The translations under genes and the position numbers were made by a program. From Candidatus Uhrbacteria bacterium (GTDB taxonomy: Bacteria; Patescibacteriota; Patescibacteriia; UBA9934; GWF2-40-263), in contig JACQSK010000012.1 of NCBI GenBank assembly GCA_016205975.1, positions 15,210-79,209 on the forward strand: 64,000 nucleotides of DNA, written 5' to 3'. Within the stretch, counting starts at the first letter, position 1. Every line of letters starts with the position of its first letter. Positions 41,902-43,914 of this stretch are shown piece after piece. Below the pieces are notes generated by a model. That model saw only the letters and a list, made by a program, of their open reading frames with translations, had not been told where the DNA came from and made no database searches.

Positions 41902-43914
41902 ATGACAAGAGGACAGGCACAGGAACGGATCAATAACCTCCGCAAGGCCATTGATGAATACCGCTATCAGTATCATGTTTTGGACAAGCTTGAGATTTCT
42001 GATGCCGCGCTAGACTCGCTTAAGCATGAGCTGTATGCGCTCGAACAACAGTATCAGGATCTTATAACACTCGACTCGCCGACCCAGCGTGTCGGCGGCG
42101 TGGCGCTCTCGAAGTTTAAGAAGGTCACGCATGCGCGGCCGATGCTCTCGATGGAAGACGTGTTCACGCGCGAGGAGTTCGAGGCGTGGCTGGAACGACT
42201 GGTGAAAGTCCTCGGCGCGCCGGTGAAAGGATTTTTTTGTATGCCGAAGATCGACGGGCTGGCCGTGTCGCTGATCTACGAGGGCGGCTTGTTGAAGTCC
42301 GCGGCCACGCGTGGGGACGGCCGCGTGGGAGAGGATGTCACGCAGAACGTCAGGACGATTGAGTCGGTTCCGTTGAGGTTGAGGGAGAGGGGCACAAAGG
42401 GGGACAAAGGGGCGCAAAGGGGTCAGAAGATTGAAGTTCGTGGGGAGATTCATTTTCCGGTGAAGGAGTTTGAGAAGTTGAACAATGCGTTGGAGAAGGC
42501 CGGGGAGTCGACGTTTGCCAACCCGCGCAACACCGCGGCGGGTTCCATTCGGCAGCTCGATTCGACGGTCACGGCGGCGCGGCGTTTGGCGTTTGTCGCT
42601 TGGGATATGGACGCCGACCTTGGGCAGACATCGATTGAAGAGGAATGGGATCTCATGCGCAAGATGGGATTCAAGCCGGCGCCGGATTCGCGCTTGCTCA
42701 CAACGGCGGACGAGATCCAGAAGCACTGGGCATGGCTGCAAGAGAGGCGCGAGCAACTCGACTATTGGGTGGATGGCATGGTCGTGCGGGTGAATGACAA
42801 CGCGACGTTCAAGAAATTGGGTGTCGTGGGCAAGACACCGCGCGGGCTGGTCGCATGGAAGTTTCCGGCGGAGGAAGCCACGACGCGCGTGAATGAAATC
42901 CAGTGGACCGTTGGGCGCACCGGTGCGCTAACGCCGGTGGCGGTCGTGGAGCCCACGTGGATCGGCGGCACGACCGTGCAGCACGCCAGCCTTCACAATC
43001 TCGACGAGATCGAACGGCTGGATGTGCGCCTGGGCGACACGGTGGTGTTGTATAAAGCGGGCGACATCATCCCCAAGATCAAGGAAGTCCTCGTGAAACT
43101 TCGTCTGGCGGGCGCGCGCAAAACAAAACCGCCGACAGCCTGTCCTGTGTGTGGCTCGAAGGTCGAACGTCGAGCGGGCGAAGTGGCGATGTATTGTGCG
43201 AATCCAAAGTGTTTTGTCCAGGATCGGGAGAACGTCTTGCACGCGGCGCGCGCGTTTGAAATTGACGGCCTGGGTCCGCAGACGGTCGCTTCGCTTTTGG
43301 AATACGGACGCATCGTGAGCGCGGCGGACCTGTTCCTCTTGAAACCGGACGAGCTTCAGGGCATGGAGGGCTTTGCCGATCTCTCGTCCAAAAAACTCGT
43401 GGAGGAAATTCAGTCACGCAAGACCATCACGCTGCCTCGGTTTATTCTGGCGTTGGGCATCCGCAACGTCGGCGAGCAGACGGCCATTGACCTGGCGCAG
43501 CATTTTCTCACGATCGATGCGCTCAAGGCGGCGTCCCTGGACGAGCTCGTGGAAGTCGAAGGGGTTGGCGAGGTCGTCGGAAAAAGCGTGCGGGAGTTTT
43601 TTGACGAGGAGCATCACCAGAAACTGGTCGAGAGCTACAAGGCCCATGGCGTGCGTGTCCTTCCGTTTGAAGGAGGAAAAAAGAAAACGGCTATTGCGGG
43701 AAAGACGTTTGTCATCACGGGGACGCTTGAGACGCTCGGGCGCGATGAGGCCAAGGAGCGCATCCGCGCCGCGGGAGGAAAGGTGTCTGGATCCGTGAGC
43801 AAGAAAACGGATTTTGTCGTCGCGGGTGAGAATCCCGGTTCGAAGTTCGATGAGGCAAAGAAGTTTGGAGTCCCCACCTTGTCGGAGAAGGAGTTTCTCG
43901 CTATGCTTTCCTAG
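41902..43914 (+). CDS. ligA: NAD-dependent DNA ligase
   Basis: KxDG adenylation motif (PKIDG), OB fold, Zn finger CPVCGS, HhH and BRCT domains. The ATG at 41902 lies 9 nt after a TACAAT box; the ORF opens at 41860. Confidence 0.9.
42383..42424 (+). repeat. Decamer-repeat element, copy 7, in frame within ligA (encodes [14 protein letters not shown])
   Basis: Sequence gggagaggggcacaaagggggacaaaggggcgcaaaggggtc. Confidence 0.75.

Follow-up and report, generated by a model that had tools for sequence, protein, structure and literature searches.

Why does the NAD-dependent DNA ligase of an uncultivated groundwater bacterium carry a G-rich DNA repeat that recurs in the genes for UvrA, UvrB, and UvrC? 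The question is raised by ligA on a 64,000-nucleotide stretch of contig JACQSK010000012.1 (hereafter the window); the nearest database relatives of this LigA are proteins named Candidatus Uhrbacteria (Patescibacteria, candidate phyla radiation [CPR]). Positions 42383–42424 read gggagaggggcacaaagggggacaaaggggcgcaaaggggtc, in frame within ligA; six further in-frame copies of the repeat lie in uvrA, uvrB, and uvrC, and a partial copy is intergenic (Table 1). On the evidence set out below, the LigA segment is probably a copy of a lineage-specific, non-autonomous DNA repeat of palindromic ancestry, which is found in permissive surface loops and is translated with its host.

The repeat in LigA

The ligA product matches Escherichia coli LigA (2owo) with 529 bits and has the full set of Pfam domains (Nlig-Ia, DNA_ligase_aden, OB, ZBD, HHH, and BRCT). 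A first-pass annotation, made from the sequence alone, had reported a seventh in-frame copy of the repeat in the 'adenylation/OB' region of this protein. The copy itself is borne out by the sequence, by the open reading frame (ORF), and by an array found with Tandem Repeats Finder (TRF; period 10, 3.5 copies). Its location is right in one half: alignment to E. coli LigA puts the insert in the adenylation (nucleotidyltransferase) domain, in the loop immediately ahead of motif III (EVRGE) that corresponds to E. coli residues 160–167, and not in the OB domain. Nor is the segment a clean insertion of 14 residues, as had been described, because the net gain is only ~8 residues relative to E. coli LigA and ~4 relative to the closest relative. 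Structural modelling of LigA with the insertion had been proposed as a check; in an AlphaFold2 model built with 48 homologues, residues 174–189 form a coil predicted with low confidence (predicted local distance difference test [pLDDT] below 50–56) between confidently predicted strands.

A repeat family spread as DNA

The unit of the repeat is 9–10 bp long, G-rich (GGGSRCAAA), and arranged head to tail. Across the window, the 8-mer CAAAGGGG occurs 13 times on the plus strand and never on the minus strand, against 1.6 occurrences expected, and when as many as three mismatches are allowed, the two-unit pattern RCAAAGGGSRCAAAGGG is matched 27 times against 1.1 expected. Apart from the seven in-frame clusters and the intergenic copy at 58911, this pattern is matched only at two places (45370 and 59872), each time singly and with three mismatches. 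TRF finds arrays of period 9–10, with 2.7–4.1 copies, at six of the seven coding sites (UvrA-2 is the exception). The window copies measure ~37–83 bp, and the sister elements in relatives, described below, 21–105 bp. Identical strings reach 33 nt between UvrB-1 and UvrB-2 and 12–20 nt between the remaining pairs; the LigA copy has a 17-mer in common with both UvrB copies and 12–14-mers in common with the other four. Units of 9 and 10 nt alternate, which shifts the reading frame of the unit inside a copy. Because identical DNA strings are thus read in different frames, the conserved entity is the DNA and not the peptide, and the comparison of copies shows that they spread at the DNA level.

All seven coding copies lack stop codons, have lengths divisible by three, and are oriented so that the sense strand is the G-rich one; their host ORFs are intact and conserved. 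The unit, as read from the sequence, is stop-free in all six frames; the three sense frames all encode basic, hydrophilic peptides of Gly, Lys, Arg, and Gln, whereas the antisense frames encode peptides rich in Pro, Leu, Cys, and Phe. From these properties of the sequence, the repeat would be translated as part of its host proteins. In the AlphaFold2 model of UvrB, residues 164–177 (UvrB-1) and 442–448 (UvrB-2) are coil with pLDDT below 50, surrounded by confidently predicted elements.

Table 1. Copies of the G-rich repeat and the genes that carry them, with the coordinates of the period-9–10 TRF arrays.
Feature	Position	Strand	TRF array	Remarks
ligA, NAD-dependent DNA ligase	41902..43914	+		NCBI product, 670 aa; a 684-codon ORF opens at GTG 41860; Pfam and structure match
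LigA copy of the G-rich repeat	42383..42427	+	42388–42422	GGGAGAGGGGCACAAAGGGGGACAAAGGGGCGCAAAGGGGTCAGA; between PLRL and motif III IEVRGE
uvrB	761..2812	+		Two copies
UvrB-1 copy	1237..1293	+	1254–1284	+14 aa relative to solved UvrB
UvrB-2 copy	2075..2119	+	2079–2116	In place of the native SDGEYPG loop ahead of GQVEDLI; +11 aa relative to the solved structure
uvrA	2809..5406	+		Two copies
UvrA-1 copy	3236..3318	+	3284–3315	Longest copy; ~+18–20 aa relative to the solved structure
UvrA-2 copy	3826..3862	+		~+10 aa relative to the solved structure
uvrC	6032..7372	+		Two copies
UvrC-1 copy	6418..6462	+	6425–6459	KRKGDKGKQRAQRD
UvrC-2 copy	7060..7100	+	7070–7095	LQRGQRAQRG; net only +2 aa relative to the solved structure
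Eighth copy, partial, intergenic	58911..58950	+		AGAGAGGGCACAAAGGGGTAGAGGGAGCAGGGGGAGG

Several other origins for such a segment were considered and rejected. Short GC-rich mobile insertions in protein-coding genes include mitochondrial GC clusters, the translational-bypass 'byp' elements, and T4 gene 60. The window copies are without exception stop-free multiples of three (chance ~(1/3)^7), which argues for ordinary translation rather than bypass; on the same ground introns and inteins are rejected, and the copies would be read through. A target of a diversity-generating retroelement does not fit, because the copies differ at a CG/GA/CA/AA dinucleotide and not specifically at adenines, and no reverse transcriptase gene was found in the window. 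A collagen-like Gly-X-Y repeat is excluded by the 10-nt units, which break the triplet register. An assembly artefact is ruled out by Logan contigs from eight SRR runs, which are 100 per cent identical to the window over the ligA copy (four contigs) and the uvrC copies (five contigs).

The 29-mer of the window found no match in a metagenome scan, and within the metagenome data scanned the repeat is specific to its species-level lineage. No Rfam family covers the repeats; above threshold, the window and three relatives gave only tRNAs and one DUF3800-IX RNA.

The same loops in related genomes

Syntenic DNA was compared from four relatives: L124/L125 (88 per cent identical to the window), L126/L151 (from the same samples, representing the organism of Joint Genome Institute sample Ga0265296), L127, and L128. 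In alignments of LigA and UvrB from Uhrbacteria, exactly the loops that hold the repeat are hypervariable, and many sequences keep a short baseline loop. The LigA loop is expanded in 20 of 47 aligned sequences by inserts of unrelated sequence, in a set that was partly hand-picked and so biases this frequency upward; in partly hand-picked sets, the loops span 10–36 residues in LigA, 7–44 at UvrB-1, and 6–71 at UvrB-2. Inserts in other Uhrbacteria include TTPSPSLKRRGMP and GLQGLRRLQGLHG in LigA; GGQGRQGGSGGQG, GYEGYKGFEGFK, (LGNREQG)n, and HSPFRGVSDG at UvrB-1; and SPSPLTKGGSRGV and (TKGLQRQPEA)3 at UvrB-2. The LigA copy had been taken for an independent copy in another DNA-nick-processing enzyme. 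That interpretation does not hold, because the LigA loop is an old site, repeatedly re-occupied across Uhrbacteria.

Specifically, the occupants of a given loop differ even between close relatives. The UvrB-2 insert is missing in relatives of 87–90 per cent identity. The UvrA-1 insert is missing in L124, and L126 has there a (GLQ)n hairpin of 9-bp units; the UvrC-1 site is empty in L124 and holds a ~100-bp palindromic element in L126. Because they are absent from the 88 per cent identical relative, the UvrB-2, UvrA-1, and UvrC-1 copies are recent gains in the lineage of the window. At UvrB-1, L124 carries a related 9-bp tandem, GGACAAGG. The UvrA-2 site is occupied by the minimal palindrome CCCCTCCTTGGCAAGGAGGGG in L124, by CCCCTCCTTGAAAAGGAGGGG in L127, and by a ~105-bp palindromic element in L126, which holds the inverted core of the ~100-bp UvrC element; it is empty in L128. 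At UvrC-2, palindromic elements of the form TTCCCCCCTG...AAGGGGGG are found in L124 (as the minimal palindrome TCCCCCCTGCCAGAGGGGGGA), L126, and L127, and L128 has the baseline loop. The two UvrC copies of the ~100-bp element of L126 and the copy in TopA are nearly identical; in UvrC, the element ends in the arms TTCCCCCCTG...CAAGGGGGGTG and contains a 33-bp palindrome.

The Ga0265296 organism has a different 9-bp repeat, GGCTWCRAG, common to its LigA, UvrA-1, and UvrB-1 loops and including an identical 18-mer. These comparisons show that fixed loops are re-occupied, with homogeneity within a genome and turnover between genomes. Since the LigA and Uvr loops of this second genome likewise match each other, the LigA copy of the window is best seen as the current occupant of an old, overwritten site.

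These data also bear on whether each locus might simply have slipped its own purine-rich codons into a local minisatellite, with the likeness among loci due to compositional convergence. Such an origin would fit the head-to-tail units of period 9–10, the native KG/KGQ codons beside several sites, and the UvrA-1 site, where the empty site of the relative is already purine-rich and unit-like (GAGAAGGCAACAGGAACAACGGGC) and each lineage has its own tandem repeat. However, identical strings of 17–33 nt across different genes cannot be convergent, and the same is true of the 18-mer common to LigA and UvrA in the second genome; in relatives, these sites hold palindromic elements that are not tandem; and the nine Logan contigs over the ligA and uvrC copies, which are consensus assemblies, show no variation in unit number. 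The identity between loci largely refutes independent minisatellites, which we regard as very unlikely. Contingency loci and coding minisatellites resemble the repeat in their short head-to-tail units within ORFs and in lengths that are multiples of three, but differ from it in that here length polymorphism is absent from the nine contigs, one unit string is common to four genes, and 9- and 10-nt units alternate.

The Ga0265296 organism is colonized far more heavily than that of the window: L151 carries a 44-aa palindromic insert in RecJ (4122–5987), FTPKTPPDLPLVRGGE in LepA (2120–3967), and TPPNPPLAGGEAF in DnaG (18943–20784), and the window orthologues of recJ, lepA, and dnaG are uninterrupted at those sites. 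Larger insertions are found in the uvr region as well. Two relatives have a DUF3800 gene between uvrB and uvrA (L127 12114–13154; L128 12177–12845), in L127 beside a DUF3800-IX RNA (13130–13194; Rfam RF02968, 59 bits), and L124 has a nitroreductase gene in the same place; insertions of gene size, too, have a hot spot in the uvr cluster.

Origin of the repeat

We infer that the GGGSRCAAA unit is the tandemized G-rich arm of a palindromic family. [quoted passage not shown] In the lineage of the window, the C-rich arm and the interior would have been lost and the G-rich arm tandemized into 9–10-bp units, a step that would also have created G-quadruplex motifs on the sense strand. Tandem duplication of the G-rich arm is seen in relatives (GGCAAGGGGGGAGCAAGGGGGG in the L124 ATPase and CAAGGGGGGATCGAGGGGGG at UvrB-2 of L126), and the 3' junction of UvrC-2 in the window, CAAAGGGGATGGGAG, matches the 3' ends of the relatives' elements, TAAAGGGGGGTGGGAG and TCAAGGGGGGTGGGAG.

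Through transposition-like copying, or through templated repair or conversion, the repeat would have been written into a few permissive, hypervariable surface loops, to be translated as a short disordered loop rich in Gly, Lys, Arg, and Gln. Selection would then remove all copies except those that keep the frame, contain no stop, and are hydrophilic and solvent-exposed. Such a filter would explain the single orientation of the copies and, in large part, why large DNA-binding enzymes seem to be preferred, since these would tolerate basic flexible loops.

Elements with inverted repeats do exist in the source genome, since an intergenic MITE lies downstream of metG (~27618–27784), with perfect 24-bp terminal inverted repeats (GGGGTCAGGTCGGGAATCGGGAAT / ATTCCCGATTCCCGACCTGACCCC). 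At the left end of this element (in the region 27590–27790), 19 bp are duplicated in tandem. Contig L136 of a relative carries a related hairpin with a 28-bp stem and the same GGGGTCAGGTCG start (4278–4338), and an ATTCCCGATTCCCG fragment lies at 57567–57581 of the window.

Several observations weigh against this explanation. The derivation of the unit from the G-rich arm relies on junction similarity and shared sites, without traced intermediates. In the window copies an inverted arm is missing, as is any recognizable target-site duplication, also when they are compared with empty sites, and no gene for a transposase, a REP-associated tyrosine transposase (RAYT), or a reverse transcriptase was found in the 64-kb window. 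The UvrB-2 copy overwrites seven native residues and UvrC-2 has a net gain of two, so that these are replacements rather than clean insertions; because some events replace native residues, conversion or templated repair fits better than classical transposition. Only one copy in the window is non-coding. Finally, the concentration of copies in uvrA, uvrB, uvrC, and ligA exceeds what neutrality and gene length would obviously predict, and the eighth copy adds to it by its position beside a base-excision glycosylase operon.

A possible bias toward DNA-handling enzymes

The first-pass annotation held that all coding copies lie in repair or replication enzymes, and within the window this is so (7/7, in uvrA, uvrB, uvrC, and ligA). 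About 60 genes were mapped there; the four host genes make up 14 per cent of the coding DNA, and DNA repair and replication genes together 25 per cent, including DnaX, RecJ, DnaG, and the HhH-GPD glycosylase. None of these last four has an in-frame copy, so the carriers are the excision-repair set and not DNA enzymes in general. Copies are likewise absent from the other long genes of the window (cysS, metG, lepA, gatA, RNase J, and a VirD4-like gene). The statistical weight of the bias depends on what is counted: P is ~6e-5 if seven independent matches all fall in DNA genes, ~0.002 if four host genes drawn by length are all DNA genes, and ~0.16 if the adjacent uvr genes are taken as one regional event, so that only the one distant copy has to land in a DNA gene by chance.

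Gaps were counted per gene between the window and L124/L125. Among 19 orthologues, the four hosts are four of the five most gapped (P ~0.001), with 36 gaps in UvrC, 19 in UvrA, 10 in UvrB, and 8 in LigA; PilM has 7 (an ordinary Lys-rich indel), LepA 2, RecJ 1, and the other twelve 0 or 1. UvrA and UvrB are nevertheless the most conserved proteins compared (88–93 per cent identity), and therefore we attribute their richness in indels to site-specific hypervariability and not to relaxed constraint. Relaxed selection on excision repair in a dark aquifer is rejected for the same reason.

In relatives, the hosts are more diverse. The P-type ATPase gene directly upstream of uvrB contains an in-frame palindrome in L124, at a site that is also variable in L126 and L127. 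A metagenome scan with the palindromic core of the L126 element returned 19 matches at 17 loci, mostly from Ga0265296; among them are at least seven intergenic copies, and the in-frame hosts are UvrC (twice), UvrA, TopA, FtsK, a GT2 glycosyltransferase, DUF4012, and an unknown protein of 170 aa. Further palindromes on the same contigs lie in SMC (directly before Walker A) and in one unknown ORF, and at the ligA locus of the Ga0265296 organism, LepA, RecJ, DnaG, and a TrmB-like protein contain elements in frame. When the Uvr copies that defined the query are excluded, DNA-handling hosts number between 2/5 and 3/8 (P ~0.04–0.17 for a 10–15 per cent background), values that are confounded by protein length and by the choice of loci. 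The signs of a bias of the sister elements toward DNA-handling enzymes are suggestive only, and the family is not confined to repair genes. The proposal that insertion is targeted to, or selected in, DNA-repair proteins is thus supported in part. In its favour, the coding copies of the window all lie in the uvr genes and ligA, other long genes have none, and the four hosts are rich in gaps; against it stand the DNA genes of the window that lack a copy, the P of ~0.16 for one distant copy, the age of the LigA site, and the non-DNA hosts in relatives.

The first-pass annotation suggested that the basic loops might contribute DNA contacts. The peptides might, in that case, have been selected as adaptive loops, whose basic Gly/Lys/Arg/Gln residues would contact DNA or link excision-repair proteins to one another. 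The three sense frames are all basic and hydrophilic, the seven coding copies are all sense-oriented, and the hosts in the window and in relatives are mostly DNA-binding enzymes. In addition, from Bacillus structures and alignment positions, we take UvrA-1 and UvrB-1 to sit in the domains that mediate UvrA–UvrB contact. Against such a role, it is the DNA and not the peptide that is conserved, and the orthologous loops of relatives are Pro-rich, acidic, Gly-rich, or absent; the loops are predicted by AlphaFold2 to be disordered, with low confidence; and the host proteins are otherwise strongly constrained, whereas their versions in relatives function without the loops. We consider adaptive loops quite unlikely.

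G-quadruplex potential

Canonical G-quadruplex (G4) motifs (at least four runs of three or more G, with loops of 1–7 nt) number 10 on the plus strand of the window, against 1.15 expected, and 0 on the minus strand. Eight of the 10 are inside repeat copies, and such motifs are present in six of the seven coding copies (not in UvrA-2) and in the intergenic copy. The LigA copy, with four runs of at least four G and 6-nt loops, is the strongest predicted G4 of all copies (−34.8 versus −16.6 kcal/mol; ViennaRNA with the gquad model). G4 formation is predicted to bring a strong gain in LigA and UvrA-1, a modest one in UvrB-1 and UvrC-2, and none in UvrB-2, UvrA-2, and UvrC-1.

The repeats might act in cis, as a G4 or hairpin of the DNA or mRNA, or as a binding site for a co-evolving factor, to co-ordinate excision repair, the ligase, and the glycosylase operon. 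This would agree with the strand-specific excess of G4 motifs, with the predicted gains, and with the identity of the carriers, which are exactly UvrA, UvrB, UvrC, and LigA, together with the eighth copy, at the 5' end of an operon: that copy adjoins the start codon of the minus-strand CYTH/HhH-GPD glycosylase operon, divergent from greA. Homogeneity within genomes and turnover between them is also what co-evolution with a trans-acting factor would produce, and promoter G4s with a proposed role in control have been described for repair genes of Deinococcus (PMC3592403, PMC12607872). In both cases canonical G3+N1–7 motifs are over-represented, in a strand-specific manner, in or near repair genes. 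However, the window motifs lie in translated repeats within coding sequence and not in promoters (58911–58950 excepted), and they arise incidentally in a repeat family of which the related members do not form G4s. Two sites per ORF deep in the coding sequence would be an odd architecture for regulation, three of the seven copies have no predicted G4 preference, and the corresponding sites of relatives hold hairpins, other tandem repeats, or no insert, with no conserved structure. A regulon mark would also have to accommodate sister elements in LepA, the ATPase, the glycosyltransferase, and DUF4012, and the lack of copies in DnaX, RecJ, and DnaG of the window. We judge such a structured mark to be unlikely.

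A broader and more speculative variant, to which we give a small but slightly larger probability, is that Uhrbacteria have miniature translated elements with a preference for DNA-handling enzymes (UvrA, UvrB, UvrC, LigA, TopA, FtsK, SMC, RecJ, and DnaG), whose fixed loops they colonize again and again in a manner concerted within each genome. The elements may be installed when nascent host enzymes act on DNA in cis; or structured DNA or RNA, as hairpins or, in the lineage of the window, G-quadruplexes, may form a co-evolving mark by which a genome-maintenance regulon is jointly controlled. The explanation given above, a palindrome-derived repeat tolerated in permissive loops, remains the one that we favour.

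Comparison with known systems

The closest known analogues of the window repeat are the RPEs (Ogata et al. 2000, reviewed in PMC10969869), which are translated in frame inside unrelated conserved genes. Like RPEs, the elements discussed here are multi-copy and non-autonomous, have no coding capacity of their own, and are translated in frame at tolerant positions of unrelated conserved genes, and the sister elements in relatives are palindromic. Unlike RPEs, the Uhrbacteria elements are smaller (21–105 bp versus ~100–150 bp), and the window version is a one-armed G-rich tandem repeat with no palindrome. Further differences are that the Uhrbacteria loops are re-occupied by different members of the family, that copies are homogenized within a genome, that the host range looks skewed to DNA-handling enzymes, and that the lineage belongs to the Patescibacteria (CPR). 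Because they lack inverted arms and target-site duplications and are smaller, the window copies would be RPE-like in the way they work, as a derived variant and not as a member of the family.

The next closest analogues are the intragenic small mobile sequences of enterobacteria and Coxiella. These and related systems (MITEs and elements of the repetitive extragenic palindrome [REP] and bacterial interspersed mosaic element [BIME] types; PMC3184786, PMC2229807, PMC2759123, and the Coxiella QMITE, PMC5896051) similarly comprise short GC-rich stem-loops of mosaic or nested structure in intergenic and intragenic positions, and the core module of a relative is likewise found inside different 'shells'. 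The window copies differ from them in having neither terminal inverted repeats nor target-site duplications, in the lack of a linked transposase or RAYT in the window, and in the fact that several events replace native loop sequence. Nor do the window copies fit a size range of ~50–500 bp (~100–150 bp for RPEs).

DNA uptake sequences deserve mention because their enrichment in genome-maintenance genes has been claimed for Neisseria and Haemophilus (Davidsen 2004, discussed in PMC2817400), a bias that is itself weak (PMC2817400). The window repeat shares with them a short, over-represented motif fitted into coding sequence, along with the reported enrichment in repair and replication genes, and type IV pilus parts are encoded in the window (PilM and a pilin) and in relatives (prepilin peptidase). 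The two differ in density, clustering, tandem arrangement, and strand distribution: the 13 CAAAGGGG sites in 64 kb all fall in eight places, on one strand and in tandem, so that they are far too sparse and too clustered, at a density well under ~1 per kb and with one of the two orientations missing. An uptake sequence is rejected on these grounds, and we assign it a negligible probability.

A full-text literature search found no description of such elements in Patescibacteria.

Other observations

A three-unit pattern resembling the repeat, CAAAGGRN{2,3}CAAAGGGN{2,3}CAAAG, gave at least 125 matches in a scan of genome contigs from very diverse phyla; the taxa among the matches listed (L005–L123) include Nostoc/Calothrix, Acidobacteriota, Verrucomicrobiota, Saprospiraceae, Anaerolineales, Kiritimatiellae, and proteobacteria. 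No Uhrbacteria occur among the matches listed, and this widespread motif is unrelated to the window repeat. It has the form (a)acc[GA]CAAAGGAC[GA]CAAAGGGC[GA]CAAAG, with three to four tandem units of 9–10 bp, followed at some loci (for example L010, L019, L054, L089, and L107) by inverted units that make a long hairpin. Sister variants have CACAGAG or CACGAAG units, and the architecture is like that of the (GLQ)n hairpin in L126 UvrA. The motif has no Rfam match. Among the matches listed, 75/125 fall within frames of 150 codons or more that have no stop, but in GC-rich DNA this carries no information.

In the uvr region, a conserved hairpin with a 10-bp stem (CCCCCTAGAG...CTCTAGGGGG) lies ~15 nt upstream of the uvrB start in three genomes (window 723–747; L124 9962–9987; L126 9967–9991); it may serve the uvr operon as a leader or attenuator structure, or else terminate the ATPase gene that lies upstream. 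In alignment with Geobacillus UvrA, the UvrA of the window (865 aa; 846–907 aa in relatives) falls into two blocks with residues 305–417 of the solved protein left out between them, and so is without ~113 residues of the region around the insertion domain. All five Logan contigs with the cupredoxin gene stop exactly at 5061–5062, in the second ABC-signature region of uvrA; this is likely an assembly break due to the internal duplication of the ABC module and not to the G-rich repeats.

Elsewhere in the window, GCGATCGC, the palindrome known as HIP1 in cyanobacteria, is about two-fold over-represented (12 sites versus 5.9 expected), and GGGCGATCGC is repeated three times in tandem at 61750–61781, at the 3' end of a DEAD-box helicase gene. 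The longest metG ORF (25690–27552) contains a tRNA gene (25730–25803; 70 bits) in its 5' end, and therefore the true metG start is downstream. An 844-codon minus-strand ORF (28287–30821) is probably spurious, because it has no Pfam match and overlaps metK on the plus strand.

Significance

If the explanation favoured here is right, the phenomenon known from Rickettsia, in which selfish DNA is translated within conserved proteins, extends to the candidate phyla radiation and to much smaller elements. Three features have not been described for RPEs: the recurrent re-occupation of the same loops; homogeneity within a genome together with turnover between genomes; and the change from a palindrome to a G-rich tandem repeat with a single arm, which puts canonical G4 motifs into essential repair genes. 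Inserts of this kind can break short-read assemblies, inflate apparent divergence, and mislead the annotation of protein domains in CPR genomes. Should the skew toward DNA enzymes hold genome-wide, Uhrbacteria would offer a tractable case either for insertion coupled to the DNA enzymes of the host or for regulation by non-B DNA inside ORFs.

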